The notes under the pieces were generated by a model. The model searched no databases and was not told where the DNA came from. It worked only from the letters and a program-made list of their open reading frames with translations. A DNA stretch of 46,533 nt, from the IMG/VR virus record IMGVR_UViG_3300015209_000001, positions 1-46,533 of that record. The stretch is one strand, 5' to 3'. Numbering within the stretch: position 1 is the stretch's first letter; each line of letters starts with the position of its first letter. A program made the position numbers and the translations under genes. This stretch comes from a virus. Shown one piece after another: positions 7,032 to 46,533 of this stretch.

Positions 7032-7061
7032 TTGACTCACCTACCCTAACCGCGCTATGGT
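7032..7061 (+). promoter_or_regulatory. Strong promoter: TTGACT-N18-TATGGT, containing motif copy CTAACCGCGCTATGGT (7046-7061)
   Basis: -35 at 7032-7037 and -10 at 7056-7061. ATG at 7068 follows 6 nt after the -10, which predicts a leaderless mRNA. Confidence 0.65.
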
Positions 7062-7067
7062 GTGTCC

Positions 7068-10092: not shown

Positions 10093-10943
10093 TGCCCCGG
10101 ACCGTGGACCTGGGCGGTGCCGCCGACCCCGACCGCATCCTGTTCAACGGCTCGCCCGATGCCTTCGGCGTGTCGTGGTGCGCCGAGGGACTCACCGGGT
10201 GGGACTCGCCGGACATGGAGCTGATCCGTGCCGACCACCCCCTAGACGACGGCCAGGTGCGGATACTGGGCCGCCACCAGGGACGGCCCCTGGACCTCAT
10301 CGCCGCCACTCTGCTCGCCCCCTCCGAGGCGGCGCGTGTGACTGCGATGGACCGCCTGGCCCATACCACCGATGTCCTGCGTTCCACGCGACGGTTGGTG
10401 GTGATCGACGGCGCGGCGTCGCGCTTCGCCGACGTGCATCGCCGGGAGCCGGTGCGGATGCGCCTACGTCCTCCTGCGGTGGACAGCCGACGCGGGATGG
10501 TGTGGCCGGCGGCGCTGGAGGTGCCCCTGGTGGCCCCCGACCCGCGCAAGTACGACCTCAACGAGACAGTCGCCCAGACATCGGCAAGCAGCGGCGGGAC
10601 CACGGGAACGGCGACCACCGTCAACCAGGGCAACTACGCAACCCCGTGGGTCGCCACGATCACCGCGAGTGGGTGGCCGGGTGGGGCGCTCAACCTGTTC
10701 ACCCCGGACAACATGCCCGTTGTGAACCTGACGTTGGTCCCGGCCATGACCGGCTCCGATGCGCTGGTAGTCGACTCTGCCAAGCGCACCGTCACCCTCA
10801 ACGGCGTCAACCGCCGTGACCTGGTAGCGGCCCTGCCTGACTGGAGCGGCATCGCCCCCGGCTTCGACACCTTCAGTTTCAACCGCGCCAACACGACCGG
10901 CTCGGTGCTCCTCCAGGTTGCCTACCGCTTCGCCTGGATCTAA
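10092..10943 (+). CDS. distal tail protein (Dit-like minor tail protein)
   Basis: TGATG overlap. Lies directly after the tape measure. Siphovirus tail pattern: GLTGWDSP..DG..LVAPDPRKY..N.GN..TPW..LNG..R..L...S.W..IAPG. Confidence 0.6.
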   Translation: MPRTVDLGGAADPDRILFNGSPDAFGVSWCAEGLTGWDSPDMELIRADHPLDDGQVRILGRHQGRPLDLIAATLLAPSEAARVTAMDRLAHTTDVLRSTRRLVVIDGAASRFADVHRREPVRMRLRPPAVDSRRGMVWPAALEVPLVAPDPRKYDLNETVAQTSASSGGTTGTATTVNQGNYATPWVATITASGWPGGALNLFTPDNMPVVNLTLVPAMTGSDALVVDSAKRTVTLNGVNRRDLVAALPDWSGIAPGFDTFSFNRANTTGSVLLQVAYRFAWI

Positions 10944-12476: not shown

Positions 12477-13147
12477 CCAAGATCACCCAACCCCCCTCCG
12501 ACAAGCACCGGGTGACGGCCCTGGAAACCCACGTGCGCGACCTCCAGCGCCAGCGGCGGCCGGACCGCTTCGCCATGCGCGACCTCACCGACGCCTCCCT
12601 GGTGCCCGTGCTGGACGGCCAGGTGCCCACCTACGACTGGAACTCGGGACTGTGGGTGCCGAAAACGCCACAAACATTCAGGCGTTCTCGGGGCATCCGC
12701 CGTCGCCGAGGTTCCTCTCAACAGATTTACAACGCAGCCCTCACCATCATTGGGATGGAGTACAACGCCTACAACTACTCCGGCATTGCCTCCCACCCGG
12801 TGACGGGGATCACCGTGCCTGCGACCGGCCTGTACACGATGAGTGCCGGCCTGACCTGGAACGCCACCTCCAACGCGGGCATCCGCTGGATCGAGATATA
12901 CCTGGCGAACACTGGCGTTGCTGGTGGTGACGGGCCCATCGTTCGTGCCGTAGGCCCTCCGGCCTCGGATGGTTCCTGCATCCAGAACGTGTCGTGCGAG
13001 TGGTACCTCGGGCCGCCCCAGGAGGTGCAACTGCGGGTGTACCAGAACTCCGGGGCCGACATTTTCACCTACGTGGACGACCGGACTGGCGGGTGGCCTT
13101 ACCTGTCCATCCTCATGGTCGATCACCAACTGGAGGCTTACCCCTGA
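12473..13147 (+). CDS. minor tail / receptor-binding-like protein with a C1q/TNF-like C-terminal jelly-roll (224 aa)
   Basis: ATGA overlap. N-terminal coiled segment (HRVTALETHVRDLQRQ). C-terminal pattern GLYTMSAGLTW..IEIYL..VQLRVYQNSG. Confidence 0.5.
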   Translation: MTKITQPPSDKHRVTALETHVRDLQRQRRPDRFAMRDLTDASLVPVLDGQVPTYDWNSGLWVPKTPQTFRRSRGIRRRRGSSQQIYNAALTIIGMEYNAYNYSGIASHPVTGITVPATGLYTMSAGLTWNATSNAGIRWIEIYLANTGVAGGDGPIVRAVGPPASDGSCIQNVSCEWYLGPPQEVQLRVYQNSGADIFTYVDDRTGGWPYLSILMVDHQLEAYP

Positions 13148-26231: not shown

Positions 26232-26530
26232 CCGACAACCACCACGACGACAACCACCACGACGAACGCCGCCGGGTCCTCGCCGCCCTGCGCTCCACCC
26301 GCGTACGCCTCGCCAGCCTCCACCGCAAGGAAGCGGCCATCTACGCCGAGCGCCTGGCGCTGTACAAGACGGGCCGGGCGGTCAAGCTGAGCCAGCGGGA
26401 GATGGGCGATGCCGCGGGGATCAGCGAGCCAGCCATCATTCAGGCCCTGAGGAAAGATCGACTGGAGCGCGAGGCCCAGGCGAGCGGCGGGGTGGAGCTG
26501 GGGCCAGCCCGACTTGACTCTCTGACCTAA
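26228..26530 (+). CDS. HTH DNA-binding protein (sigma region-4-like HTH), His/Asp-rich N-terminus
   Basis: ATGA overlap. KLSQREMGDAAGISEPAIIQALRK helix-turn-helix. N-terminal DNHHDDNHHDE. Confidence 0.55.
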   Translation: MTDNHHDDNHHDERRRVLAALRSTRVRLASLHRKEAAIYAERLALYKTGRAVKLSQREMGDAAGISEPAIIQALRKDRLEREAQASGGVELGPARLDSLT

Positions 26531-26542
26531 CCGCGCTATGGT
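26514..26542 (+). promoter_or_regulatory. Strong promoter TTGACT-N17-TATGGT containing motif copy CTAACCGCGCTATGGT (26527-26542)
   Basis: -35 at 26514-26519 and -10 at 26537-26542. ATG 26549 follows 6 nt after the -10 (leaderless). 26526-26559 is identical to 7045-7078. Confidence 0.65.
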
Positions 26543-26548
26543 GTGTCC

Positions 26549-26974
26549 ATGACCACCACCACAGAGAAGACCTACGCAACGATCGCCCCTAACGACGTCT
26601 CCCGCTCCATCGCAGCCGAGGCGCGTGCTGTAGAGGAGGGCCACAGAGCCTTCGTCCAGCCCGGAGGCCGCATCCGCATCGTCTCCGACACCATCCCGGA
26701 CCGCCACTACCACGTCGCCTACGTCGGCCGAGGGGGCCTCGTGGAGTTCTGCTGCGACCACCCCATCGTCGCCGGCTGGAGCGATCAGCCCTGCATGACG
26801 CGGCCCGGGTTGACGAACTGCAAACACTCGGCCTTGGCGGCGCGCCGCCTGGAGCGCGAGGGCCTCGCCCGCTGGGACAACGGCTGGTACCTCACCGAGC
26901 GCGCCGAGCACCTGGCCGCTGAGGTCCCCCGCCCCTGCGCTCCTCCCGCCCCTGCCAGCCAGTTCGTCGACTGA
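26549..26974 (+). CDS. SWIM-zinc-finger-like protein
   Basis: Begins MTTTT. FCCDHP...C....LTNCKHSALAARRLEREG fits a CxC..CxH SWIM-type finger. Confidence 0.5.
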   Translation: MTTTTEKTYATIAPNDVSRSIAAEARAVEEGHRAFVQPGGRIRIVSDTIPDRHYHVAYVGRGGLVEFCCDHPIVAGWSDQPCMTRPGLTNCKHSALAARRLEREGLARWDNGWYLTERAEHLAAEVPRPCAPPAPASQFVD

Positions 26975-28917: not shown

Positions 28918-29015
28918 CCCTGCTGATCATCCTCGCCCTGCTGGCGGTGATCTTCGTGCTGATGGTGGTGGACGTCAGGCGCATGGATGACGACGACGAG
29001 GAGGGGCGGCGGTGA
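28914..29015 (+). CDS. 33-aa single-TM protein
   Basis: ATGA overlap. MTLLIILALLAVIFVLMVV followed by an acidic tail. Confidence 0.35.
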   Translation: MTLLIILALLAVIFVLMVVDVRRMDDDDEEGRR

Positions 29016-29209
29016 TCGACTGGAGCTTCTTCCTCCTCATCGCCGCCGGCTTTGGCCTCGGCACCGCCTACGCCCATCGCCGCACCATCGTGGATGTGCT
29101 GTGTGAGTGGCGCTGGCTGGTGGGCGAGGGCGACGAGTTCGAGCTGCCGGCGAGCCGGTCGAGCGTGCGGGTGGTGCGTGGGCCGTTCGATTGGGAGGGG
29201 GAGGGGTAG
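29012..29209 (+). CDS. small membrane protein (65 aa)
   Basis: GTGA overlap. TM WSFFLLIAAGFGLGTAYA. Confidence 0.45.
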   Translation: MIDWSFFLLIAAGFGLGTAYAHRRTIVDVLCEWRWLVGEGDEFELPASRSSVRVVRGPFDWEGEG

Positions 29210-29451
29210 TGCCTAATCCCTACCGACGTGGCGGGTTCTATTGCTCGGGCTGTGGGGCGTGTTTTACCACGGCCGGATGGGGTGTCATCACCTGCCAAAA
29301 ATGCGGACAACTCGGCTTGCGCCAGTTCACGAAGATGCCACGGTCGGTTACCTGCCCGAAGGCTGAGTGCGACTGGCGCGGGTGGGATGACGGCGGCGTC
29401 AACGACGACCTCGGACGGCACCTGCGACGCGAGCACAAGGCGCCGGCATGA
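29209..29451 (+). CDS. zinc-ribbon protein (80 aa)
   Basis: GTG shares one base with the upstream TAG. CSGCG..CQKCG..CPKAEC. Confidence 0.5.
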   Translation: MPNPYRRGGFYCSGCGACFTTAGWGVITCQKCGQLGLRQFTKMPRSVTCPKAECDWRGWDDGGVNDDLGRHLRREHKAPA

Positions 29452-29660
29452 ATCTCCGCCGCCCGCCGCCGCCACGACGCACCCTCGGTGTCTGGCTGCG
29501 CCATTCCCGCCCGCTGCGGTGGTCGTGGAGGAACTGGCGCCAGGGCTACCAGTTTCGGCCCATCAGTCGGTGTCGTCGTTGCGACCACACAAGCCCATTC
29601 CACTACTCGACATGTGTGTTGCTGGTGGACCAACCAAAGGAGAACCATGAACACATCTGA
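29448..29660 (+). CDS. Arg-rich hypothetical protein (70 aa), weakly supported
   Basis: ATGA overlap. By hand count, GC3 is higher than in the two competing frames. GC falls towards the 3' end. Confidence 0.3.
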   Translation: MNLRRPPPPRRTLGVWLRHSRPLRWSWRNWRQGYQFRPISRCRRCDHTSPFHYSTCVLLVDQPKENHEHI

Positions 29661-29706
29661 GGCATTGAAGCTCGTGGCCTGTCGCAGATGGGGCTAGACT
29701 TTAGGT

Positions 29707-30021
29707 ATGACCCAAGCATGGATTCCGAACCCGATCCGGAGGGAAGTGTCGATCAAGTCAGGGGGTCGATGCTTCCATTGCCAGAAGGTAGCGACCTCCG
29801 TCAAGGTGGACCGTTGGTCCATTCCTCGGTTCGCAGATGAAGAGGGCGTTCCCTTCGAGGTAGACCACCTTCTCCCTCGGAGCCAAGGCGGCACCACCGA
29901 CGCCGGCAACCTCGTCGTGGCCTGCCGTTCGTGCAATAGGAGCCGCAAGCGGACAACAGCTAGCGACCAGGACGCCGTGAGACAACTTGTCGAGAACATC
30001 AACGGGTCGAGGTCGGGGTGA
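29707..30021 (+). CDS. HNH endonuclease
   Basis: CFHCQK..FEVDHLLPRSQGGTTDAGNLVVACRSCNRSR. ATG lies 6 nt after a TAGACT box (29695-29700). The upstream region is lower in GC. Confidence 0.85.
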   Translation: MTQAWIPNPIRREVSIKSGGRCFHCQKVATSVKVDRWSIPRFADEEGVPFEVDHLLPRSQGGTTDAGNLVVACRSCNRSRKRTTASDQDAVRQLVENINGSRSG

Positions 30022-30491
30022 CGCGCTACGTGGCCTTCTTCGCTGCCGCCGTGCTCATCTCCTGCACGCCCCCAACCACCCAATCCACCGCCCCACCGAC
30101 TACAACCTCTACGACCACTTCTACACAGGTCCCCACCAAGACGATTCCCGCCGACTCGTCTGGTGGGATGGCTGCCGTTCCTGCCGTCGAGCCCCCCCAG
30201 GCTCCGGTGGGGGCGGTGGCCGACTCGCACGTACTCGAAAGAATTGAGAGTGGCGACGTGCTGGCACGAATAGCACGGTGCGAGGGGTATCCCCGCTTCG
30301 TCAACGCCAGCCATCCGGGGCGCTCGTCGGCGTCGGGCAAGTACGGCGCACTCGACGGCACCTGGGGCGGCTACGGCGGCTACAGGCAGGCCAAGGACGC
30401 TCCCGAGGCCGTGCAGGACGCTTGGGCGGCTGAGTTGTACGCCAAGGCCGGGACGCGGCCATGGGCGGCGTCTAGGGGGTGCTGGGGATGA
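30018..30491 (+). CDS. secreted lipoprotein with an Rpf/transglycosylase-like domain
   Basis: GTGA overlap. Lipobox AAVLISC. Thr/Pro linker. ARCEGYP..SGKYGALDGTWGGYGG..AVQDAWAAELYAKAGTRPWAASRGCW resembles the transglycosylase-like (Rpf) domain. Confidence 0.6.
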   Translation: MTRYVAFFAAAVLISCTPPTTQSTAPPTTTSTTTSTQVPTKTIPADSSGGMAAVPAVEPPQAPVGAVADSHVLERIESGDVLARIARCEGYPRFVNASHPGRSSASGKYGALDGTWGGYGGYRQAKDAPEAVQDAWAAELYAKAGTRPWAASRGCWG

Positions 30492-30883
30492 TCGAGCGCA
30501 ACGGCTACCTCATGCGTTACGTAGGTCCTCGGCGCGGGCCGGGTTCTCCGTACAAATACGTGCATCGACTCGTCATGGCCGAACACCTGGGCCGACCACT
30601 GCTGGCGAGCGAAATAGTCCATCACATCAACCACGACAAGCACGACAATCGCCTGGAGAACCTGGAAATAACGACGGCTGCCGAACACGCTCGGCAGCAC
30701 ATCGCAGATGGAACCGCCGGCATCGGCAAAATCGGCCCCCGTCATGATCTGAGGATGCCGAAGGTGCCATGCCCTATCTGCGGCGCAATGTTCACGCCGT
30801 ACCAGCACCGGCCGGGCCAACGTCAGGCAGCGTGCTCGTTCTCCTGTTCCAACAAGCTGCGGCCGCGTGGAGTGGCCGTATGA
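30488..30883 (+). CDS. HNH homing endonuclease (HNH_3-type) with a C-terminal zinc ribbon
   Basis: ATGA overlap. [52 protein letters not shown]. Confidence 0.85.
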   Translation: MIERNGYLMRYVGPRRGPGSPYKYVHRLVMAEHLGRPLLASEIVHHINHDKHDNRLENLEITTAAEHARQHIADGTAGIGKIGPRHDLRMPKVPCPICGAMFTPYQHRPGQRQAACSFSCSNKLRPRGVAV

Positions 30884-30947
30884 CCCGCGCTGCGGAGTTG
30901 ATGCGCCGGCGTGGACTGCAGCCGTGGAGCGTGCGGGAGAAGTGCCG

Positions 30948-31223
30948 GTGAGTGAGCCATCGGTCTTCGAGCAGGTGGTGGCCGAGGCCCTCGCACCTTT
31001 GGAGCCATTTCACCGAGATGGCAGAGTTATGCAAATCCGTATTGAGAAGCGCAGCAAGGCTGTTCTCCACGCCCTCGCCACCGACCCCCGGTGCTTGGAA
31101 GCCATGACGGCGGCGATGAACCACTATCGACCTTTAGACGGAATGGCGCAGGTGGCAAGCACGCCAGCCAACCTGGCTCGGCGTGCCCTCGCCGCCTTCG
31201 ACCCCGAGAAGGAGACACCGTGA
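30948..31223 (+). CDS. hypothetical protein (91 aa), paralog of 27342-27710
   Basis: GTGA overlap. VSEPSVFEQVVAEAL. Confidence 0.5.
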   Translation: MSEPSVFEQVVAEALAPLEPFHRDGRVMQIRIEKRSKAVLHALATDPRCLEAMTAAMNHYRPLDGMAQVASTPANLARRALAAFDPEKETP

Positions 31224-31330
31224 CCATCCCTGTGTTTACGACAACGTGCGAGCAATGCGGCACTCGTTTTCATGCTTCCTCTGCAGAGGAAAGGCTGTGT
31301 GCTGATTGCGAGAGGGAGGAGACACCGTGA
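31220..31330 (+). CDS. 36-aa zinc-ribbon peptide
   Basis: GTGA overlaps at both ends. CEQCG..CADC. Confidence 0.4.
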   Translation: MTIPVFTTTCEQCGTRFHASSAEERLCADCEREETP

Positions 31331-31449
31331 CCCACCACTACGTCTCCACCTACTGCATCCACGACCTCCACGATGCCTGCCGCCTCACCTGCAAGCACTG
31401 CAAGGCGCCGTGTCTTTGTCGGTGCCATGTGGAGAAGGAGACGGCGTGA
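31327..31449 (+). CDS. 40-aa Cys/His-rich peptide
   Basis: GTGA overlaps at both ends. HHYVSTYCIHDLHDACRLTCKHCKAPCLCRCH, a motif I recall from other actinophages. Confidence 0.45.
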   Translation: MTHHYVSTYCIHDLHDACRLTCKHCKAPCLCRCHVEKETA

Positions 31450-31718
31450 GCGACAACCCGCCGTGTTGCAACCCGGCTCATTGGTTCGCAGGCACAAACC
31501 AATCAAACGTGGACGACAGGCAGGCGAAAGGCCGCGGCGTTGCCGTGTGGGGGTTGCCGCTTCTGAACTCACGTAAGACCCATTGCAACCGAGGCCATGA
31601 GTTCACGCCGGAGAACACTCGCATTTACCAAGGCAACCAGAGACGCTGCAAAGCGTGCGAACCCATCAACTCTCGTGAGTGGTACCACAATAAGAAGGCC
31701 GAGAATGAAGGGAGGTAA
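31446..31718 (+). CDS. N-terminally truncated HNH-like protein (C-terminal two thirds only)
   Basis: DNPPCCNPAHWFAGTNQSNVDDRQAKGR and CNRGHEFTPENT..RRCKAC parallel the 17044-17625 HNH protein. The upstream His-containing part is missing. Confidence 0.55.
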   Translation: MSDNPPCCNPAHWFAGTNQSNVDDRQAKGRGVAVWGLPLLNSRKTHCNRGHEFTPENTRIYQGNQRRCKACEPINSREWYHNKKAENEGR

Positions 31719-32825
31719 GGGGGCGGGGCTAATACAGGCCAACGCAATCGCTCTGCCATTGGCAGACGCGAGCGTGGACTTGATAATCACCTCGCCCCCG
31801 TGAGGCCTTACTTCGCCCTTCGCTCCTACCGCGACGCTGGCGAGCACTACGACGCTCAGATCGGTAGCGAGCCAACGCCACAAGCGTTTCTGGAGGCCCT
31901 GTGGTCCGTCCTGAGCGAGTGCTGGCGCGTGCTGAAGCCGACCGGCTCATGCTGGGTCAATCTCGGGGACAAGCGCAGCGGGAGCGGCGGGCACAACAAC
32001 GCCGGCATCTCGTCCAAGTCCACCCTGAGCGGCAATGGACACGTCGGCGGCGTGGGCAAGGCGGGCCCGACGAAGATCAAGGCCACGCTTCGCAACGCCC
32101 CCGACCGCTACAACCAGGCCGCCTTCGGTCGCACCAAGTCGAAGATGCTGCTCCCGCACCGCTTCGCCATCGGGTGCGAGGACGGGTTGGCCGACCCCGA
32201 GGGCATCGGGTGGATCGTGCGGCAGGACGTGGTGTGGAGCAAGAGAAATTCGCTTCCAGAATCAGTGACCGACCGGACCCGGGATAGTCACGAGTTTTGG
32301 TTTCATCTGACCAAGCAGGGGCGGTACTTCTCGGCGGTGGACGAAATCCGCCAGCCATCGGTGCCTCAGAACGGCCTAGCCGGCACGTTCAAGCGGCCCA
32401 AGCCCAGCCACGACCTTGTGCCGGGGCAGGCTGCTACCCAGCAGCGAGCAGAGCGCAACGGGGACGACGCCTACCACCCGAAGGGCGCCCTCCCTGGCTC
32501 AGTCTGGACCGTCGCCTCCGAGCCCCTACGCATCCCCGACGCGGTGAAGGCGCACTACGACCTGCCCGACCACTTCGCCGCCTTCCCGCAGGAACTTCCA
32601 CGGCGCATCATCCTCGGCTGGTCGCCGTCTGGCATCTGTGTGGAGTGTGGTGAGGGCCGACGTCCGGTGGTGATCCGAGAGTTCCACGGTGAGTTCAACG
32701 AGCAGGAAGCAGGAAGGCAACGTGAACGAGGCGTGGTGAGCGGGGCCGTCGACAAGGTGACGCTCGGCAGGACGGACGACGTGGAACGCACTATCACCGG
32801 CTACGCCTGCGCCTGCCCCCCGTGC

Positions 32826-33341
32826 GGGGATTGTTCTAGGACGCTAAGATTGTCCTATGACAAAACCGTGTCTCCAGTGCGGGTCACAGATAACCCTCGA
32901 CCACCTAAAAGTGAAGTGGGAGTCGGATCGTCTACGGGCGCTCAAGAAGGCTCGGTTTTGCTGCAAGGCATGTTCGAGTCGCTGGAACGCGGCACACCGG
33001 GCGTCAACGACGTATCGCCGGCTGACGACTCGCGGATACGTGGAACTGTGGAAGCCGAGTCACCCGATGGCGAACAAGGGCGGGTACATCATGGAGCACC
33101 GCTACTTGATGGCGGAGCACCTAGGGCGGCTCCTGACCTCGGCCGAGGTCGTGCATCACAGGAACGAGATCAAGACGGACAACCGGCTAGAAAACCTCGA
33201 AGTCCTGCAAAAGAAGGACCACGACCGCCGGCCGAAGCCGCTGCCGAAGCCGTTTCAGTGCCCTCACTGTCAGGGCTGGTTACAGACGTTCGGGAGCCAC
33301 AGCCGTGTCCGCACTGTCGTCCCGCTCCCACCAGAGCCAGT
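32826..33341 (+). mobile_element. Insertion carrying an HNH homing endonuclease inside the methyltransferase gene (free-standing or intron-borne)
   Basis: A lower-GC junction (gattgttctaggacgctaagattgtcctatgac) follows the methyltransferase sequence GYACACPP. Native methyltransferase sequence resumes near ..[18 protein letters not shown]. Boundaries are approximate. Confidence 0.5.
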
Positions 33342-33345
33342 GTGA
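32857..33345 (+). CDS. HNH homing endonuclease (HNH_3-type) with an N-terminal zinc ribbon
   Basis: [63 protein letters not shown]. Paralog of 30488-30883. Its frame differs from the methyltransferase frame. Confidence 0.85.
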
Positions 33346-33573
33346 TTCTTGATCCCTTTTCTGGAACCGGCACCGTCCCCGGAGTCGCCCGCCAGCTCGG
33401 CCGATTCGGCGTCGGCATCGACCTGAGCTTCGACTACCTGCGCCTGGCCCGTTGGTTTTTGGATGACGGCCGTAGGTTCTCAAAAACCAGCACGAGAACC
33501 GACCGGGAGCGCCAGGGCGTGCTCCTGTGACCCTGCCCGCCGCCGCCTGCGCCGCACCGCGTAACACGGCCTC

Positions 33574-36596: not shown

Positions 36597-37298
36597 CTAC
36601 CGCCCCCGCTTCAGGGTGGAGTCGCAGCGTGAGCAGTAGTCCCCGACGGGGGTTGGGTGGCGGCAGTCCTTTGGGTCGACGCGGTTGGCATCGCGCCGGT
36701 CCTTGGCGTTCGTCCCCGTCGGCCGAGTCAAGGGGACGACGCCTGCCCCCTTGCACGTTGGGCACGTGCGCTGGTCGTCGCGCGGCGGCTGAACAGACGC
36801 CACCGGGTGATGGTTGGGCGGTTGGTAACCCTCATCGGGGGCCGCTGGCGTTGGTTCATCCCTGGGCGCCGCCGCCTCCGGTGAGGAAGGAAGGGCAGGC
36901 GGCCGCTTGTCGCGCTGCGCGGTAAGCGGTGGTTCTCGCCCCCGGCGGGCTCGTTGAACTTCCGTCCGCTTTGACGGCGGGGCGAGGTGTTCCGCCCTCT
37001 CGGCAGCCGTTCGCCACCGGGTCAACGTCTTGTCCCCCACGCCGACCTCTCTGGCAATCCGGGCGAGTGCCGTCCCGTAGGCGCCGTCTGGAAGCCCCAC
37101 CCTCATTGACCAAAGATGAAGGCCCACCGCCCGCCGCATTTCAACCGTGCGAGCCTCGGCAAGAACGAGCAGGGGAGCCTTCTCGATCAGCCACGCCTCG
37201 CTCTGCTCCGGGGTGTAGGCGTCTAGGTCCTGAGCGGTGAGCGTCTTGACATCGGGGATGGAGAGTTGGATATCAGGAAGGCTCACGGCACCAGCCAT
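36597..37298 (-). CDS. HTH DNA-binding protein with a C-terminal CxxCxGxG / CxxC zinc module (233 aa)
   Basis: GAYGTALARIAREVGVGDKTLTRWRTAAE HTH. Pro/Arg-rich linker. TCPTCKGAG and CSRCDS. Visibly lower GC3 than neighbouring genes. Alternative GTG starts at 37304 and 37316. Confidence 0.6.
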   Translation of the reverse strand: MAGAVSLPDIQLSIPDVKTLTAQDLDAYTPEQSEAWLIEKAPLLVLAEARTVEMRRAVGLHLWSMRVGLPDGAYGTALARIAREVGVGDKTLTRWRTAAERAEHLAPPSKRTEVQRARRGREPPLTAQRDKRPPALPSSPEAAAPRDEPTPAAPDEGYQPPNHHPVASVQPPRDDQRTCPTCKGAGVVPLTRPTGTNAKDRRDANRVDPKDCRHPTPVGDYCSRCDSTLKRGR

Positions 37299-37606
37299 GT
37301 CCACTCGCCGTCCCACAGATGGGACCGCTTCGGCTGCCAGATGGATCGACCTCCCGACAGTGAGTCTCCATCGTGGAGCTTGTACAGAAGCCGACGAGCA
37401 ACCTCTTCGGGGTGGGCGAGGCTTTGGTCGAAGGTAACTTGAACGGTGACGGTCACCGTCCGGGGGTTCGGGGGTGCAACCTGACCTTCCTCAATCGCCT
37501 GAGCGCGGAACAGAACCCAGTCTGAGTCGTAGTCCTCCCTGCTCGGCTTCGGGTACGCCGCCTCGTAGATTCTGTCGCCTCGCTGGTTGATTACGCTGTC
37601 GCTCAT
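37283..37606 (-). CDS. hypothetical protein (107 aa), first gene of the reverse cassette
   Basis: AAGGAGG lies 6 nt upstream of ATG 37606. Its stop overlaps the downstream ATG region. No recognisable motif. Confidence 0.55.
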   Translation of the reverse strand: MSDSVINQRGDRIYEAAYPKPSREDYDSDWVLFRAQAIEEGQVAPPNPRTVTVTVQVTFDQSLAHPEEVARRLLYKLHDGDSLSGGRSIWQPKRSHLWDGEWTWLVP

Positions 37607-39437: not shown

Positions 39438-39605
39438 ATGCGCATCGAGGAGCTGTTCACCTGCGACGACGCGTGCGTGTACTGCCGCGGGTGCGGGCAC
39501 GTCTGCGAGGCTCATCCCCTGGAGCCGTGGGGCGGAGTGGACGAGAGCGGCTGCCAGTGCGGGGCGCCGGGGATGCCGTGCCGACCTGATCGACGCAGGC
39601 TGTGA
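39438..39605 (+). CDS. 55-aa Cys-rich peptide
   Basis: ATG 1 nt after the portal stop. GTGA overlap with the next gene. CDDACVYCRGCGHVC..CQCG..C. Confidence 0.4.
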   Translation: MRIEELFTCDDACVYCRGCGHVCEAHPLEPWGGVDESGCQCGAPGMPCRPDRRRL

Positions 39606-40360
39606 TCCCCGCCCTCAACGGCAGGCGCACCATCGCCGCCTACCGGATGGCGCGGTGGGAGCTACGCCTTCGTCGAGCCCTGCGCGCCGCCATCAAGGTC
39701 CAACAGCACGCCCTGGAGGCCCGCCTGCGCTCCCGCACGGCCTCGGTGCCCCCCTGGGACGACGGCGAGTGGAACGACGACCTGGACGAGGTGGGGGATG
39801 TGGTGCGCTCCATCCTGAGCGAGGCCGCGGTGGTCGCTGTCCACAAGCTGGGCAAGGACGCCCTGGTCCTGTCCTCGGTGGAGGACGCCCTTCGCGCCCG
39901 CATCGCCCGCTTCTCCGATCAGGTGCGGGGCCTGTCGAGCCACCTCGTGCCCCGGCTGGAGAGCGAGCTGGCGACGGGGCTGGCTCACGGTGAGTCCGTG
40001 GACGCCCTCGTAGCGCGGGTGCAGGAGGTGTTCGTGCGGGTGGAGCACCAGCAGCGGACCTTGGTCAGGACGTGGGTGGTGGGTAGCTCCAACCAAGCCG
40101 CCTTCGAGGCCGGGGACGCCCTTGTTCAGGCAGGGGAGGATGCCCTGGATCGGGTGTGGCTGAGCGCCGGCAACGACGGAAGAACCCGGCCTGACCACGC
40201 TGAGGCTGACGGCCAGAGGGTCGGTCCTGGTGAACCCTTCATCGTGGGCGGCGAGGAGCTGATGTGGCCAGGAGACCCGGATGGCTCGCCGGAGCAGGTC
40301 ATGAATTGCCGGTGCGTCACGCTGAGCCTCGCCCCCGATGAGGAGATAGCGCCCGCCTAG
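39602..40360 (+). CDS. MuF-like / SPP1 gp7-like head morphogenesis protein
   Basis: WLSAGNDGRTRPDHAEADGQ...PGDPDGSPEQVMNCRCV is the Phage_Mu_F signature (..R..H...dG.......P.....NCRC). Confidence 0.75.
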   Translation: MIPALNGRRTIAAYRMARWELRLRRALRAAIKVQQHALEARLRSRTASVPPWDDGEWNDDLDEVGDVVRSILSEAAVVAVHKLGKDALVLSSVEDALRARIARFSDQVRGLSSHLVPRLESELATGLAHGESVDALVARVQEVFVRVEHQQRTLVRTWVVGSSNQAAFEAGDALVQAGEDALDRVWLSAGNDGRTRPDHAEADGQRVGPGEPFIVGGEELMWPGDPDGSPEQVMNCRCVTLSLAPDEEIAPA

Positions 40361-40405: not shown

Positions 40406-41851
40406 ATGCCGCGCCGCGCCCGCTTCTTCATCCAGCCCTGCGAGTGCGGAGGAACGTGTGGGGGCTGCGACGAGGAGACGGTAACCGCCGCCATCGAGGG
40501 AACGACCGCCGCGGTTGGTGATCCGCCAGCTGACGGCCCCCTGCCGGAGCGGTGGCACGCCGTGGTCCTGCTCGAAGGGCTGAGGACCGGCGACCACCGC
40601 GCCATCCGGCCGATGGCCCTGGAGTTCCGTGACCTCCCCCTGCCCCTGTGGGCCCAGGCACGCAACTCCTCCCACTTCGACGCCCCGTTGGTTGGCTCGA
40701 TCGAGACGCTGGAGCGGGTGGAGTGGGACGCGGTGCCGGGAGTGCAGCTCATCATGGGCACCGGGACCTTCGACCTCGGAGGGACCGAGGGCCAGGAAGC
40801 GGCTCGTCTCGTGCGCGACCAAGTGCTTCGGTGGGGATCGGCCGACATCGACGTGTTCGCCTCCGAGGTCATGGGCACGCCACCGTGGGCCGAGGACGGG
40901 CTCGACATCATCCTTGGCGGAGCTGACGTGGAGGACTGGTGGGAGGAGATCACCTCCGGGCGGGTGGCCGGCTTCACCCTGCACCCCCACCCCGCCTTCC
41001 AGCAGTGCGTCGTGGCCCCCGACTCCGTGGAGTTGGAGATCCCCGCCCCCATCGAGACCGAGGGCGCCACTCTTCCGGGCCTCATCGCCGCCTCCACCCC
41101 TGCCGAGCCCCCCTCTGGGTGGTTCGCTGACCCGTCCCTCGACGCTCCCACGCCCCTTCGTGTCGGAGACGACGGGCGGGTGTGGGGCCACATCGCCACG
41201 TGGAGAACCTGTCACACCGGCCTCCTACGCTCCGGCTGCACGCGCCCCCCGCGCTCCAGCCTCAACTACGAGCCCTTCCACTCCGGCGGCTTCGTCCAGA
41301 CCGACTCCGGAGCCGTGCGGGTGGGGCACCTGACGATGGACGGCGGACATGCGGAGCTGCCCTTCGACGCCCGGAGGACGCGGCGCCACTACGACGACTC
41401 GACCACGGTCTGGGCCAACGTGCGCGCCGGTGAGGACGCCCTCGGCATCTGGGTAGCAGGAGCGGTTGCGCCGGGGATCACCACCGAGCAGATCATGCGT
41501 GCCCGCTCCCTGGCCGTGTCAGGCGACTGGAGGGCGTGGCCCGGCGCCGGCCTGGAACTGATCGCCGCGCTGTCGGTTCCCGTACCGGGATTCCCGGTAT
41601 CGATGGCCGCAGGGGCCGAGCAGATGGTGGAAGTGCGCCCGCGGGCCCGGCTGGTGGACGACGAGCCCATGGCCCTGGTGGCCGCGGGGATGCTCGCCCC
41701 TGCCCGGCACGAGGGACTGACGGCGGCGGCGGTGCAGGCCATCGTGGACCGCTCGGTGGCTGACCTCCGGGCTTCGTTGCTGGTCCTTGACCCCCTCGTC
41801 ACCGCGTCGCTGGTGGCCGAGATGGACACCCTGGTCGCCGCATCGCCGTGA
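40406..41851 (+). CDS. capsid maturation protease (actinophage type)
   Basis: DGRVWGHIATWRTCHTG..C..PP.S...Y..FH.G...T..G...VGHLT..GGHA...........HYDDSTTVWA.VRAGEDALGIWVAGAV.PG......RA..LAVSGDWR matches the family as I recall it. TACGAT box lies 7 nt before the ATG. Confidence 0.6.
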   Translation: MPRRARFFIQPCECGGTCGGCDEETVTAAIEGTTAAVGDPPADGPLPERWHAVVLLEGLRTGDHRAIRPMALEFRDLPLPLWAQARNSSHFDAPLVGSIETLERVEWDAVPGVQLIMGTGTFDLGGTEGQEAARLVRDQVLRWGSADIDVFASEVMGTPPWAEDGLDIILGGADVEDWWEEITSGRVAGFTLHPHPAFQQCVVAPDSVELEIPAPIETEGATLPGLIAASTPAEPPSGWFADPSLDAPTPLRVGDDGRVWGHIATWRTCHTGLLRSGCTRPPRSSLNYEPFHSGGFVQTDSGAVRVGHLTMDGGHAELPFDARRTRRHYDDSTTVWANVRAGEDALGIWVAGAVAPGITTEQIMRARSLAVSGDWRAWPGAGLELIAALSVPVPGFPVSMAAGAEQMVEVRPRARLVDDEPMALVAAGMLAPARHEGLTAAAVQAIVDRSVADLRASLLVLDPLVTASLVAEMDTLVAASP

Positions 41852-42063
41852 GCGACCACGGCACGCGCACGAGCTACACCCACGGGGGCTGTCGCGAGGC
41901 GTGCTGCCAGAAGCCCAACGCCGAGTACGTGGCCTCCTACCGGGCCAAGACCCGCCGCCAGTCCTCGGTCAAGCCCGCCCCCTCCGCCGCTCCGCGGGGG
42001 GAGCGGATGACGCCGTGGGAGCAGCAGCTACGGCGAGCGGCGGCTGAGTCAGCCGACTGGTAG
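41848..42063 (+). CDS. hypothetical protein (71 aa) with an HGTRTSYTHGGCREACC motif
   Basis: GTGA overlap. Its 3' end overlaps the convergent gene 42049-42303 by 15 nt. Confidence 0.45.
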   Translation: MSDHGTRTSYTHGGCREACCQKPNAEYVASYRAKTRRQSSVKPAPSAAPRGERMTPWEQQLRRAAAESADW

Positions 42064-42303
42064 CCGAGCGGGGCGAACCTCGGTGGTGCTCACCGTGAGG
42101 CCCCACCCGCAGGGCAGGCAGAACACCGAGTGCGTCTCCGTCGTCGCTCCGTACCCGCCGTGTCGGAACAGCGCCGGCTGGTCCATCGTCACCTCGTGCA
42201 GCGCACCGCCGCACATCGGGCACGCGCTGCGGTCGATGGGCACCAGTGCCCGGCTCCCTGCCCAGCGGACCTTGGGGGCCACGTCGATGAGGCGAGCGGG
42301 CAT
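42049..42303 (-). CDS. zinc-ribbon protein (84 aa), last gene of the reverse-strand island
   Basis: CPMCGG..CLPCGWG. Very high GC3. ATG lies 6 nt after a minus-strand motif copy. Confidence 0.6.
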   Translation of the reverse strand: MPARLIDVAPKVRWAGSRALVPIDRSACPMCGGALHEVTMDQPALFRHGGYGATTETHSVFCLPCGWGLTVSTTEVRPARLPVG

Positions 42304-42309
42304 GGACGG

Positions 42310-42325
42310 AAGGTAGGGCGGTTAG
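42310..42325 (-). promoter_or_regulatory. Minus-strand motif copy CTAACCGCCCTACCTT (-10 TACCTT)
   Basis: Reverse complement of aaggtagggcggttag. ATG 42303 follows after 6 nt (leaderless). Confidence 0.5.
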
Positions 42326-42331
42326 TTGCCC

Positions 42332-42622
42332 TCATCGGCCGTGGTGTACGGCCGTCCACAAAGACTGGATGGCTTCGCCCGCTGTCGGAGCGTGCCTGTT
42401 GATCCCGTTGGGGAACCCGTCGTAGATGTTGAACGGCGGGTTGCTCTCCTCAGGCAGGGCCAGAAGCCCGCTTGCCAGCCCTTGTCCCGATGCGCCGTCG
42501 CGGTCGAGCAGTGCGGCCCCGGCCATCCATCCGCCATCGGGCCACGGCCAAACGGCTACGACCACGGCATAGTCGGGCAGCCCAACCATGCGTTCCACGA
42601 GAGCCCAATCCGGGGGGGTCAT
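42332..42622 (-). CDS. hypothetical protein (96 aa)
   Basis: ATG 42622 overlaps the upstream stop (TGATG). Product MTPPDWALVERMVGLPDYAVV...ESNPPFNIYDGFPNG. Replaces the 154-aa ORF-track model (see rejected list). Confidence 0.55.
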   Translation of the reverse strand: MTPPDWALVERMVGLPDYAVVVAVWPWPDGGWMAGAALLDRDGASGQGLASGLLALPEESNPPFNIYDGFPNGINRHAPTAGEAIQSLWTAVHHGR

Positions 42623-42948
42623 CACTCGTTCGACCACTCGGTCGACAGGAACCGGATGGGCCCACGCTGTGCCGTAAACGTCGGCAGGTCCATCCTCGGA
42701 GCGCAGCCCTCGTGGAACCACACCCCGTCGCCCATGGCGAACGGGTTCAGCCACCCGGGCGTGACCCAAGGCGGTTTCCGGAGCGGCAGGTGGCATCCCG
42801 ATAGCTGCGGTGGGACCCGACGACGCTTGCCAGCGAACCGCCCTGAGCTGTGCACGACCGCCACCGTCGGCGGCCCGCCGCAGAGCGCGGCCGGATCGGG
42901 CTCGGAGAACTTAGTGATCGGAAAGCAGAGACCCCGACTGACGGTCAC
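42622..42948 (-). CDS. hypothetical protein (108 aa)
   Basis: GTG 42948 overlaps the upstream stop (GTGA). By hand count, about 50 of 57 codons end in G/C in this frame versus 34 of 58 in the competing frame across 42622-42796. Confidence 0.5.
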   Translation of the reverse strand: MTVSRGLCFPITKFSEPDPAALCGGPPTVAVVHSSGRFAGKRRRVPPQLSGCHLPLRKPPWVTPGWLNPFAMGDGVWFHEGCAPRMDLPTFTAQRGPIRFLSTEWSNE

Positions 42949-43097
42949 GTCCGACCTTGGGTGGGATGCCGGTCGCCGCACGCGACGTAGTCGAGCTGGC
43001 CGTCCCAATGCTGGCCGTAGTCGGGCCAGATCAGGCTCTCAGGCCAGGCACTCAGGCCAGGCGGTAGCACGGTAGCCCCCACGATCCTGGCGTTCAC
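42945..43097 (-). CDS. hypothetical protein (50 aa)
   Basis: GTGA overlaps at both ends. GC3 is high by hand count. Contains DNA direct repeats. Confidence 0.35.
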   Translation of the reverse strand: MNARIVGATVLPPGLSAWPESLIWPDYGQHWDGQLDYVACGDRHPTQGRT

Positions 43098-43105
43098 GAT
43101 CCTGG
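43038..43105. repeat. Short direct repeats: CTCAGGCCAGGC x2 (43038-43049, 43051-43062; 13-nt period) and CACGATCCTGG x2 (43080-43090, 43095-43105; 15-nt period)
   Basis: Read directly on the + strand. The 13-nt period is not a multiple of three, so this is a DNA-level rather than a protein-level repeat. Confidence 0.7.
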
Positions 43106-43225
43106 GTATCTCGCCATCGCCCGACCATGCGACCGGCTCGGGCCGACCCAGCGGACCTTGCCGTCGCTGCGAGTGGTGCGCACGAAGAAAGTGGGCTTGC
43201 GGGTGGTGGTCTGTGTCGTCGTCAT
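43094..43225 (-). CDS. hypothetical protein (43 aa), leaderless first gene of the reverse operon
   Basis: ATG 43225 lies 6 nt after a minus-strand TAGGGT -10. Product MTTTQTTTRKPTFFVRTTRSDGKVRW... GC3 is very high for the first ~32 codons. Confidence 0.4.
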   Translation of the reverse strand: MTTTQTTTRKPTFFVRTTRSDGKVRWVGPSRSHGRAMARYPGS

Positions 43226-43231
43226 GACCCC

Positions 43232-43260
43232 ACCCTAACCGCGCTATGATCAGGAGTCAA
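43232..43260 (-). promoter_or_regulatory. Minus-strand promoter TTGACT-N17-TAGGGT driving the reverse operon
   Basis: -35 is the complement of 43255-43260 and -10 is the complement of 43232-43237. Then 6 nt to ATG 43225. Confidence 0.6.
43235..43250 (+). promoter_or_regulatory. Motif copy CTAACCGCGCTATGAT (-10 TATGAT) facing the capsid genes, overlapping the minus-strand promoter
   Basis: Same 16-nt motif as the other copies. The next + strand gene starts at 43492. Confidence 0.5.
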
Positions 43261-43491
43261 GAGGTTCGAGGTGGCGCTCGCTGGAAGCACGGCATGACTT
43301 GGCTTCGTTGACGACCTGCGTGGCCCGGTTCTACATCGACGACCTGATGGATACTCTGCGCTCGGTGCCGAGGTAGAAAAATCGCCCGACCTTGTGTTAC
43401 GGCCACACTGAGAGGGCCGACTCGACCTCGTTGAGCGGATGTCACGGGACCTCGTCCCAGCCCCGCCCCTGCGATTCCAAGAGGTAGCCCC

Positions 43492-45198
43492 GTGGACAAC
43501 ATCGAGATCCCCGCCCTTCCCGAGAACCTGGCCGAGCTGAGCGATGAGGACATCGCCGAGCTGGCCGCACAGATCGCCGCCACCTTCGGCGAGGTGCGCG
43601 AGGCCGATCCCTCCCCCGAGCGGACCGCAGCCATGCGGACCCTGGTGGAGTCCGCACGCACGATCACCACCGCGCAGGGCGAGAGGGCCGAGGCATCGCG
43701 CCTGATGGCCGAGGAAGCCGCCACCCTGGAAGCGGAGATGGCCGCCCTGAGCGACACCGGCACCCCCGACGAGCCCGAGGGCGAGCCGGAGCCCGAAGCC
43801 ACCCCCGAGCCCGTGGAGGTCACCACGACCGTCCCCGTGGCCCCTGCCCAGACGGCGAGCGCACGGGTGCCTGCCGTGGCACGAAGGGTGCCGGCCAACC
43901 GCCAGCCCCGCGCCGTGCCCTCCGGGCCGCGGGTGTCGATCACCGCGGGAGCAGACGTGCCCGGGTTCGGGATCGGCCAGCGCCTCGCCGGCATGGACGA
44001 GATCGTGACGGCCATGGTGGCGCGCTCCGAGCAGCTCGGCAGTGCCTCCCGGGGCGTGGACGAGAAGGTGGTCGTCGCCTCGATCCACCTGGACATCCCC
44101 TCCGAGCGGATGCTGTCGCCCATGCACTCCGAGCGGGCCAACTCCCGCATGGTGCGCGACGCCATCGATCGCACCAACATGCGCGACGTCAACGCCCTGA
44201 CCGCCGCGGGTGGTCTGTGCGCCCCCGTGGGGACGTTCTACGACCAGCTCAACGTCGGCAACACCGGCGAGCCCGTGGGCGATGCACTCCCCGGCTTCGG
44301 GGCTGAGCGCGGCGGTATCCGCTTCGTGCCCGGTCCGGCCCTGTCCTCGATCACCGGCAGCGTGGCGACCCTCACCGCGGCGATCGACCTGGCCGGCGGC
44401 GCCCCGGCCGTCAAGACCTGCCTCAACGTGGCCTGCGATGCCATCGTGGAGGTGGACACCGTGGCCATCTACTCCTGCCTGGAGTTCAACAACTGGGGCG
44501 CCCTCACGTTCCCCGAGCGGGTGGAGGCCCAGACGCAGCTTGCGCTGGTTCAGGCCGCCCGCGTGTCCGAGCAGGTGCGCCTCGACGGCATCGCCGCCGG
44601 GTCGCTGGCTGTCAACCGCACCTCGCCGCTCGGATCGGTGCGGGAGTTCACCGCGGCGCTGGCTTCGGCCGCTGCCGGCATCCGCTCGCGCAACCGCCTC
44701 GCGCCCGACTACGTGCTCGACCTCTACGCCCCGTCGTGGACCCCGGCCCTGTTCGACGCCGACTGGGCCGCGGGACAGTTCCTCAACCCCTCCGACGCTC
44801 CCTCCGCGGGAGAGATCGCCGCTGACCTCGCCGGCCTCGGCATCCGGGTGACGTGGTACTTCGACTCCAAGACCGCCGGCTCCCAGGTCTTCGCGGCGCA
44901 GAGCGCGGGCGTGCTCAACGCCTTCCCGACCAACTGCCTGATGTACCTGCACGTCCCCGGCACCTTCGTCGGCCTCCAGGGCGCCACGCTCAACATCGGC
45001 CTCATCCGGGACTCGGCGCTGACCATGGGCTCGGGCACCTCTCCCGGCAACCGCTACCGGGTGTTCACCGAGACGTGGGCGAATGTCGCCAAGGTCTCGA
45101 ACCTGGAAGCCCTCGAAATCTCCATCCCCTCCTGCCCGACCGGCACGACCGGCGCACCTTCGGCCACCGCCCTTACCTGCGCCACCGTTCAGGCGTAG
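43492..45198 (+). CDS. major capsid protein candidate with an N-terminal scaffold/delta-like domain (568 aa)
   Basis: AAGAGG RBS, GTG start. N-terminal ~150 aa are helical and acidic with a Pro/Glu linker (scaffold-like). The remainder has ..TAAGGLCAPV..ERGGIRF..IGLIRDSALT..NRYRVFTETW, which I recall from actinophage capsid proteins. Confidence 0.65.
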   Translation: MDNIEIPALPENLAELSDEDIAELAAQIAATFGEVREADPSPERTAAMRTLVESARTITTAQGERAEASRLMAEEAATLEAEMAALSDTGTPDEPEGEPEPEATPEPVEVTTTVPVAPAQTASARVPAVARRVPANRQPRAVPSGPRVSITAGADVPGFGIGQRLAGMDEIVTAMVARSEQLGSASRGVDEKVVVASIHLDIPSERMLSPMHSERANSRMVRDAIDRTNMRDVNALTAAGGLCAPVGTFYDQLNVGNTGEPVGDALPGFGAERGGIRFVPGPALSSITGSVATLTAAIDLAGGAPAVKTCLNVACDAIVEVDTVAIYSCLEFNNWGALTFPERVEAQTQLALVQAARVSEQVRLDGIAAGSLAVNRTSPLGSVREFTAALASAAAGIRSRNRLAPDYVLDLYAPSWTPALFDADWAAGQFLNPSDAPSAGEIAADLAGLGIRVTWYFDSKTAGSQVFAAQSAGVLNAFPTNCLMYLHVPGTFVGLQGATLNIGLIRDSALTMGSGTSPGNRYRVFTETWANVAKVSNLEALEISIPSCPTGTTGAPSATALTCATVQA

Positions 45199-46120: not shown

Positions 46121-46533
46121 GTGGCAAACCTGACCGGCCCTGTCTCCATCCGGGGCATCGTGGCCCGCTTCGCACGTCTCGACGCCGCCGGGCTGACGCC
46201 TGCGGGAGCGACCAACGGCTACATCATCAAGTTCGTGCAGTTGGTCCTCACCCCGGAGTACCGCGAGGGGGAGGACTTCGAGGTCAAGCTGGCCGACGGG
46301 TCCCGCTGCGTCGACGCACAGGAGCACGCCGTACCCCGAAGGGTGGGCCTGGAGCTCCAGGTGTGCAACCCCGACGCCGAGCTTCACGAGCTGCTGGCCG
46401 GCTACACCCTGTCCACCGTCTCCACCGATACTGTCGGCGCCGCCTTCCCCGCGGTGGGAGTCGACCCCACCCCCAACGGCGTGAGCATCGAGGCGTGGTC
46501 GAAGCGTTCCAACAGCGACCTCTCCGCTCCCTC
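46121..46533 (+). CDS. 5' part of the wrap-around structural gene (continues at 100 / equivalently 1-346)
   Basis: GTG 46121 with GGAG 7 nt upstream. The frame stays open to the window end and runs in frame into 1-346. Confidence 0.6.
   Translation, partial: MANLTGPVSIRGIVARFARLDAAGLTPAGATNGYIIKFVQLVLTPEYREGEDFEVKLADGSRCVDAQEHAVPRRVGLELQVCNPDAELHELLAGYTLSTVSTDTVGAAFPAVGVDPTPNGVSIEAWSKRSNSDLSAP
46435..46533. repeat. Terminal direct repeat, identical to 1-99
   Basis: Read directly. 99/99 identity. Confidence 0.95.

Follow-up and report, generated by a model that had tools for sequence, protein, structure and literature searches.

The window analyzed here is the whole 46,533-nucleotide (nt) stretch of phage DNA that makes up IMG/VR virus record IMGVR_UViG_3300015209_000001 (positions 1 to 46,533), and the subject of this work is an island of small open reading frames (ORFs) lying within its head genes. 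Five ORFs on the minus strand, termed p43, p50, p108, p96 and p84 after their lengths in amino acids (aa), tile positions 42049 to 43225 in the interval between the capsid protease gene and the major capsid protein gene (Table 1). An ORF listing confirmed the coordinates given in a preliminary description of this DNA, and the identities of the two flanking genes were confirmed by matches to phrog_18402 and phrog_777. The chaining of the first four ORFs was also found as described: read on the minus strand, the p43 stop and the p50 start share a GTGA (43097-43094), the p50/p108 junction is a second GTGA (42948-42945), and the p108 stop overlaps the ATG of p96 within a TGATG (42624-42620). The preliminary description had put these ORFs forward as its best candidate for an undescribed accessory system. 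The evidence presented below pointed instead to a mosaic of genes that appear to have been acquired singly, and no evidence was obtained of one co-evolved multi-component system.

The direct repeats previously noticed at the DNA level are present but small. A 13-nt unit is repeated 2.4 times at 43032-43062, and an 11-nt sequence, read as CCAGGATCGTG on the minus strand, occurs twice, at 43080-43090 and 43095-43105, where the p50 start region has been copied 15 nt downstream and in frame. Both repeats fall within coding sequence in the p50 region and probably represent slippage duplications; no function was indicated. The island was not distinct in composition, the guanine-plus-cytosine (GC) content being 0.69 in 42001-44000 and 0.69-0.73 in the flanks.

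Relatives of the five products were sought in a collection of 5.8 billion protein clusters and in IMG/VR. A concatenated query of all five proteins recovered only the p96 relative, the relatives of p84 and p108 being obtained from single-protein queries. Relatives were distributed over six different high-GC phage contigs, unrelated to one another, with that of p108 on L005, those of p96 on L001 and L009, and those of p84 on L002, L003 and L010, while no homologue of p43 or p50 was found in the cluster collection or by tblastn against phage genomes. When the neighbors of every relative were compared with the whole window by tblastn, no second island homologue was detected near any of them, and only the single gene was shared, save for a Gam-like gene in L010. 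The p96 relative P0001 was surrounded by small forward genes on a phage-like contig. In the p84 family, P0005 was located at the start of its contig, upstream of an unannotated 439-aa gene, probably encoding the large terminase, and then of portal, protease and capsid genes; P0004 adjoined an HNH gene; and the L010 copy was directly upstream of a C-5 DNA methylase gene. The p108 relative, P0006, was found on a fragment of 1.6 kb. In all those contigs the relatives were codirectional with their neighbors, and only in this island were they reversed. Profile comparisons showed no fusion linking the p108 or p84 families with P0001. The proposal of a single accessory system was, therefore, not sustained, as the relatives of p108, p96 and p84 reside in separate contigs whose neighboring genes match no other gene of the island.

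The absence of any nameable family among the products, as stated in the preliminary description, was borne out. Scans of all five products and their relatives with Pfam, PHROG, NCBIfam and PADLOC detected nothing above sub-threshold zinc-finger noise, three sequence searches of the PDB yielded lowest E-values of 0.31 to 0.69, and tblastn of the five products against 50,697 phage genomes gave no match at E-values up to 1. With PADLOC-DB v2, no match was obtained for p43, p50, p108 or p96, and p84 matched only Csf1 (E 0.014, 13 bits), so that the suggested role in defence found no significant match.

Three of the products, p108, p96 and p84, are thus conserved proteins. Among 1.84 billion protein representatives p108 had one relative, P0006 (95 aa; E 9e-9), with 47% identity over the C-terminal 59 aa, and scans of metagenomes and IMG/VR for the p108 family found nothing. 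The conserved C-terminal domain reads GWLNPFA..G.WFH..C...RGPI...EWS, and the blocks PDPA..C, SGC, GWLNPFA, WFH..C, RGPI and EWS are common to the two proteins. Conservation of Cys23, Cys52, His79 and Cys82 is consistent with a putative C2HC zinc site, whose first two cysteines form a CxxC in P0006 and are split by a 26-aa insert in p108. The p96 protein had ~50% identity with the central domain of P0001, a protein of 251 aa on contig L001, and with a copy on IMG/VR contig L009 that is frameshifted; its conserved motifs are PDYAV.V..WPWPDGGWMAG, LALPEE and YDGF.NGIN.H. A scan of 185,579 species genomes indicated that this family is absent from them. The L009 copy (3300010371_000003, 8001-8263) is split by the frameshift, with a stop after ...WPWPDGGWNAGTR, and represents a pseudogene unless the assembly is in error. 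Relatives of p84 were P0004 (58% identity), P0005 (54%) and the L010 copy (52%), together with a weak zinc-ribbon match in the low-GC contig L011. The first knuckle of p84, CPxCG, is invariant in the family; the second reads CLPC both in the window and in P0004, is missing in P0005 (CPTDGW) and is differently spaced in L010. Structure prediction followed by Foldseek, as proposed in the preliminary description, was performed for part of the set: a p96 model from a two-sequence alignment was poor (AlphaFold2 predicted local distance difference test score [pLDDT], 58) and matched nothing in the PDB below an E-value of 0.26, and the single-sequence p108 model was unusable (pLDDT, 32).

Distant relatives of the phage were reached via the promoter motif described below and then via the portal protein, at ~30% amino-acid identity, and the presence or absence of the island in them was determined. 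The island proteins were absent from all of the phages examined that share the protease and capsid families, and in L098 the genes that flank the island here adjoin each other. In this lineage the slot between the protease and capsid genes varies, with different contents in L097, L098, Rosebush and Kewpiedoll and an exonuclease gene in Phendrix (Table 1). In the window, the remainder of the slot is a divergent intergenic region of 266 nt upstream of the capsid gene (43226-43491), a probable capsid 5' leader, in which no convincing ORF and no unusual folding (z +0.37) were observed; no Rfam match was found in 41500-44000. L097 and L098 likewise have a gap of 243-252 nt before the capsid gene, with a sequence unlike that of the window. 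This gap (L097 14737-14979; L098 11049-11300) is common to those two contigs over its ~250 nt, opens with a GC-rich hairpin, GACCCCCG...CGGGGGTC, and carries conserved blocks up to the start codon; it may represent a terminator and, after it, the promoter or leader of the capsid gene.

Coding potential was assessed with a codon log-odds score, trained on 18 large genes of this genome, which compares the sense frame with the antisense frame having aligned third positions. Per codon, 24 reference small genes scored 0.12 to 0.66, and antisense controls had a mean of -0.28 and a maximum of -0.01. The scores of p50 (0.49), p96 (0.33) and p84 (0.21) were all inside the range of the reference small genes. 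GC content at third codon positions (GC3) was 0.80, 0.80, 0.83, 0.76 and 0.87 for p43, p50, p108, p96 and p84, respectively, relative to a genome mean of 0.875, and the GC3 frame plot changes frame exactly at the ORF boundaries. For p50 the values at the three codon positions (GC1/2/3 of 0.69/0.55/0.80) were gene-like. On statistics alone, p50, p96 and p84 look like genes; p108 needs its homologue. A public gene caller had called p108 (as 108 aa), p96 and p84 with the boundaries of the preliminary description, leaving p43 and p50 uncalled and absent from the public protein collection, and the JGI call of p96 was 85 aa, not 96 aa. The start positions of p96 and p84 were backed by N-terminal conservation with their relatives. 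Longer forms of p108 (128 aa) and p96 (154 aa) were rejected, as GC3 falls in the extensions and homology begins at the short forms. A 249-aa plus-strand ORF (42326-43075) was likewise rejected as a real gene: its GC3 is 0.74, its product is Arg/Gly/Pro-rich, and it overlies three ORFs of the minus strand, two of them with homologues.

Two leftward promoters were predicted for the island. The dedicated promoter claimed earlier for the start of the island corresponds to a sequence-predicted site, termed P1, at 43260-43232, and the leaderless motif-type promoter claimed for p84, termed P2, corresponds to a one-mismatch copy of a 12-mer element, CTAACCGCGCTA. Both fit, at the sequence level, the leaderless SigA-type promoter pattern of actinobacteria, in which a TAnnnT -10 box ends 6-7 nt before the start codon and a TTGACN box 17-18 nt upstream defines a strong class (P1, TTGACT-17-TAGGGT-6-ATG; P2, TACCTT-6-ATG). 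In P1 the ATG of p43 is 6 nt past the -10 box, and the whole span from TTGACT to ATG is 43260-43223 (minus strand). In P2 the string CTAACCGCCCTAccTT, 6 nt and the ATG occupy 42325-42301 (minus strand); there is no -35 box. The geometry of P2 is that of the sites at 7046, 26527 and 35767. Transcripts would be expected from this spacing to start at or next to the ATG and hence to be leaderless. A generic sigma-70 scan overlooked P1, its -10 rule being too strict for TAnnnT; the P1 box fits TATAAT at 3/6 positions. A search of both strands of the window for TTGACN-N16-19-TANNNT detected three sites, at 7032 (+), 26514 (+) and 43260 (-), relative to ~0.6 expected from a base-composition estimate. 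In all three, 6 nt are followed by ATGACnACnAC and an ORF opening with MTTT, and the two other ORFs begin much like p43, whose first codons are ATGACGACGAC. The three stretches (7032-7078 and 26514-26559 on the plus strand, 43260-43213 on the minus strand) are near-identical modules, in which cTTGACTC is separated from TAtGGT or TAgGGT by a spacer of 17-18 nt that includes the 12-mer, with ATGACnACnAC 6 nt further on. Their products (p43, a 125-aa protein with a hydrophobic segment and a Cys-rich protein of 141 aa) are otherwise unrelated.

The 12-mer recurs throughout the genome. Its last two bases begin the -10 box, TAnnnT. With up to two mismatches there are 11 copies versus 2.1 expected; nine of them differ from the 12-mer at no more than one position, and all nine lead into TAnnnT: 7046, 18679, 20074, 25903, 26527, 28498, 35767 and 43235 on the plus strand and 42314-42325 on the minus strand. 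The core, GCGCTANNNT, has eight exact sites, on the plus strand only, versus 2.2 expected. Seven of the eight plus-strand copies are located 6-40 nt before a plus-strand start codon. The element was also present beyond this phage: IMG/VR contig 3300037755_000870, with only ~30% identity in protein, has at least six copies of the 12-mer plus TAnnnT, always on the gene strand. Contigs in which the element recurs include L033, L039, L041, L076, L053, L055, L056 and L088, and their proteins from the portal or the small-terminase region show 26-35% identity to those of the window. It was absent from the portal-to-capsid block in L097 and L098. This distribution weakly suggests that the 12-mer marks non-late genes, and its recurrence in distant phages points to a conserved factor or sigma specificity that may recognize it. 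The only literature matches to the 12-mer were primer sequences unrelated to it. As the predicted promoters of the island belong to the phage's own motif family, the island would, therefore, be wired into the phage's own regulation.

One of the plus-strand copies of the element, that at 43235, is placed back to back with P1. This rightward copy (CTAACCGCGCTATGAT, the exact CTAACCGCGCTA followed by TATGAT) lies within the P1 spacer and faces the capsid gene, for which it may serve as the promoter. The opposed -10 boxes, at 43232-43237 on the minus strand and 43245-43250 on the plus strand, are 8 bp apart, and the predicted starts, near 43225 and 43257, are 32 bp apart. No terminator-like sites were found in 41500-43800, and the region downstream of p84 folded no better than shuffled sequence (z -1.25).

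In the expression model suggested by these features, P1 would drive p43, p50, p108 and p96, with translation handed on through the 4-nt and 1-nt stop/start overlaps, and P2 would drive p84. As P1 shares ~40 bp with the rightward copy, polymerase or a factor binding the 12-mer would probably serve one direction at a time. The leftward transcripts, meeting no terminator, would run antisense into the protease operon. The cassette would be expressed with the non-structural class of genes, and its products would not be virion components; our best guess is that they act singly as nucleic-acid- or protein-binding modulators in host takeover, counter-defence or regulation of phage genes. Promoter firing, leaderless starts, mutual exclusion of the two directions, timing and biochemical roles were all deduced from sequence, and should be read as predictions. 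The whole package, a mosaic accessory cassette in a variable slot, carrying two leftward promoters of the phage's own type and encoding small proteins that act singly, is the explanation we favor and consider moderately probable. This assessment is based mostly on the structural statements, the specific biochemical role being a low-confidence guess.

Several observations weigh against this explanation. As each family has only one to four relatives, their failure to co-occur is weak negative evidence, and the tight coupling of p50, p108 and p96 could reflect a functional partnership specific to this phage. The codon score of p108 (0.05) was borderline, lying under the lowest reference gene and over the top antisense control, and that of p43 (-0.06) was under all of the reference genes and just under the top antisense control, and hence antisense-like. 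The rightward 12-mer copy is 241 nt from the next start codon (43492), unlike the other seven, and given this distance may be an operator rather than a promoter. The copy at 7046 is within the tail region, which makes the assignment of the element to an early/middle class weak. The functional guess is itself drawn from composition (Cys/His patterns and charge) and from analogy, and is held with low confidence.

The doubtful coding status of p43 affects the count of genes: p43 may be a leaderless first cistron or merely a leader, and the five genes claimed earlier may be four. That p43, and perhaps the N-terminal part of p108, are chance ORFs in DNA of 69% GC, leaving a p50-p108-p96-p84 cassette with a leader, is a serious possibility, if somewhat less probable than its opposite. 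In addition to the antisense-like codon score, GC1/GC2 of p43 is atypical (0.48/0.70), and the public gene calls lack p43 and p50 and shorten p96. However, the ATG of p43 is placed exactly at the predicted leaderless start, with the same geometry as two well-supported genes (7068 and 26549), the GC3 frame track keeps to the p43 frame over 43110-43259, and the PDPA..C motif of the p108 N terminus is shared with P0006. It is quite possible that p43 is not a gene, a conclusion compatible with the favored explanation of a mosaic cassette. A different view would make the small ORFs secondary and the locus a timing device at the level of DNA or RNA, in which the leftward promoter occludes the capsid promoter and the unterminated transcript collides or pairs with that of the protease operon, head-gene expression being held until a 12-mer-binding factor flips the direction. 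The closely opposed -10 boxes and predicted starts, the perfect 12-mer on the rightward face, the lack of a terminator after p84 and its 15-nt 3' overlap with a convergent gene would all suit such a device. It is, however, improbable in our estimation: three of the proteins have counterparts in other phages with 47-58% identity and are hence selected as proteins, relatives express their capsid genes without such a unit, the distance between the rightward site and its gene is atypically long, and there is no structured RNA or Rfam match.

The possibility of one co-adapted multi-gene module for defence, superinfection exclusion or anti-defence is suggested by the four ORFs chained under one promoter, by the reverse orientation, separate promotion and absence from relatives of the unit, and by its orphan or near-orphan products. 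We consider it very unlikely, since the relatives of p108, p96 and p84 were never found together, the best PADLOC hit was the nonsignificant match of the zinc ribbon to Csf1, the p96 family was absent from bacterial genome representatives and promoters of this general type are the phage's own. Furthermore, no integrase or other lysogeny gene was found through which a defence gene could be expressed; the search for an integrase covered window ORFs of at least 300 aa, and lysogenic expression is therefore without support. We are about as doubtful of the bolder proposal as of the timing device, namely that the island encodes undescribed effectors of host takeover or counter-defence (a C2HC GWLNPFA/WFH protein, an acidic WPWPDGGW protein and an RHGGYGA zinc ribbon) coupled to a two-way capsid-promoter switch run by a factor recognizing CTAACCGCGCTA. 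Finally, the ORFs might encode scaffold, decoration or chaperone proteins or other ordinary accessories of head assembly, a match to which had been named in the preliminary description as an outcome that would refute it. The location within the head module, and nothing else, favors this; the orientation is opposite to the entire structural operon, no match to PHROG or Pfam head or packaging families was obtained, the ORFs are absent from all of the relatives with the same protease and capsid genes, and relatives of p84 and p96 occur among non-structural genes (methylase, HNH and small early-type genes). A role in head assembly is accordingly the least credible of these alternatives, and scarcely plausible.

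The phage carrying the island is an orphan, high-GC, Rosebush-like actinophage. Nucleotides 1-99 of the window are identical to 46435-46533, and an independent Logan contig (L004, from ERR4837089), 100% identical to the window, spans the end-to-end junction. On these grounds the window is a complete assembly of ~46,434 bp (46.4 kb), either circular or terminally redundant. The genome has a GC content of 69%, and nearly all of its genes are on the plus strand. Its capsid protein showed <40% identity to all of those in the 50,697 phage genomes, the best matches being the "major capsid hexamer protein" of Arthrobacter and Gordonia phages and others being from Microbacterium and Mycobacterium phages. 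Megablast of the head region against the same genomes detected no relative at the nucleotide level, and scans of IMG/VR, GTDB genomes and JGI metagenomes with capsid-protein patterns found nothing.

Other features of the genome are listed in Table 1. A 71-aa plus-strand gene after the protease gene (41848-42063; GC3, 0.92), absent from the preliminary description and present in the public gene calls, is convergent with p84, and the two share 15 nt at the 3' end of p84. The 71-aa gene carries the motif HGTRTSYTHGGCREACC and has only weak PHROG matches, to the C termini of HNH-family proteins (E 0.01); a similar HGT...GC.C..C motif occurs twice in a 259-aa protein encoded upstream of the p108 relative in L005. 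A second reverse-strand unit in the packaging/head module (36597-37606, minus strand), between small post-terminase genes and the portal gene, consists of a 233-aa ORF (HTH_Tnp_1, sub-threshold, E 3e-4) and a 107-aa ORF, with no PHROG matches; its Shine-Dalgarno sequence is ordinary, and a 12-mer promoter is lacking. The stretch 29000-33500 has a GC content of 0.61-0.66 and a weak GC3 signal, with a DNA methyltransferase-like ORF (31800-33530, phrog_67) and an HNH_3 gene at its 3' end, and may have been acquired more recently.

Table 1. Island ORFs, predicted promoter elements, other genes of the window and contents of the protease-capsid slot in relatives
Feature	Position	Strand	Description
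p43	43094-43225	-	43 aa, Thr/Arg-rich, isoelectric point 12; coding status doubtful
p50	42945-43097	-	50 aa, acidic, Trp-rich, GTG start
p108	42622-42948	-	108 aa, basic, isoelectric point 9.6
p96	42332-42622	-	96 aa, acidic, Trp-rich, isoelectric point 4.6
p84	42049-42303	-	84 aa, zinc-ribbon-like, CPxCG...RHGGYGA...CxxC
P1, predicted leftward island promoter	43232-43260	-	-35 TTGACT 43260-43255, 17-nt spacer, -10 TAGGGT 43237-43232
P2, predicted p84 promoter	42310-42325	-	CTAACCGCCCTA, 11/12 to the 12-mer, -10 TACCTT, ATG 6 nt on
Rightward 12-mer copy	43235-43250	+	CTAACCGCGCTATGAT, exact CTAACCGCGCTA then TATGAT, faces capsid gene
Tail genes	0-16 kb		
Peptidase	~16 kb		
Gam-like, Erf-like, replication initiator and DnaB-like genes	18.7-25 kb		
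Lower-GC stretch	29-33.5 kb		With methyltransferase and HNH gene
Large terminase	33995		
Portal	37817		
MuF-like protein	39602-40360		
Protease-like protein	40406-41851		phrog_18402, E 1e-41
Major head (capsid) protein	43492-45198		phrog_777, E 8e-72
phrog_779 protein	45202		
Slot in L098			252-nt gap only; protease 9450-11048, capsid 11301-13085
Slot in L097			Two unrelated forward small genes and a 243-nt gap
Slot in Rosebush			One 57-aa gene and a 173-nt gap
Slot in Kewpiedoll			Four forward genes, including RNA ligase
Slot in Phendrix			Exonuclease immediately upstream of capsid gene

The locus is of a familiar kind, in that small accessory genes occupy a tolerated gap in the structural operon of an actinophage. 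It provides an example of actinophages parking small, individually mobile genes in such gaps, which is useful for annotation and is not surprising. Its most reusable by-products are the conserved promoter element, CTAACCGCGCTA-TAnnnT, and three small-protein families which can now be defined by conserved motifs. The element is common to phages whose proteins are only ~30% identical and is found here back to back with a strong, putatively leaderless promoter. If a factor does read the CTAACCGCGCTA element, then this locus would make a compact model of how high-GC phages time the expression of their capsid genes.

Three known systems invite comparison. As a small zinc-ribbon-like phage protein, p84 recalls the restriction-alleviation protein Lar (PF14354, TIGR03655); the weak Lar matches cover p84 residues 27-72, and one member of the p84 family is encoded directly upstream of a C-5 DNA methylase gene. 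However, the scores were far under the curated cutoffs (14.7 versus 28.6 bits and 12.8 versus 39.6 bits), and the three p84 relatives had no Lar match; to our knowledge, the p84-family motifs WxGSRALV and RHGGYGA are not features of Lar. Overlapping divergent promoter pairs act as switches in phage and bacterial regulation, and the two opposed -10 boxes of this locus, within ~20 bp and under one polymerase footprint, resemble such pairs; they differ in that both sites are sequence predictions and the rightward one is 241 nt from its presumed gene. Closest are the morons and structural-module cassettes of lambdoid phages and of Rosebush. The island shares with them an insertion between genes that are adjacent in a relative (L098), its own predicted promoter, an orientation opposite to the late operon and small products of no assigned function. 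With Rosebush, in which the head-gene families are common to both phages, it further shares the presence of small reverse-strand genes in the structural module (gp8 and gp22-23 in Rosebush), and no sequence relationship was found between the island and any gene of Rosebush, Kewpiedoll or Phendrix. The moron footprint seen in the preliminary description was upheld in the variable slot and would accord with the predicted promoters, but was not upheld in the remaining hallmarks: unlike a typical moron, the island has neither a terminator nor a compositional signature, its promoters are of the motif family used genome-wide by the phage, and, with no integrase among the window ORFs of at least 300 aa, no sign of a temperate lifestyle accompanies it.

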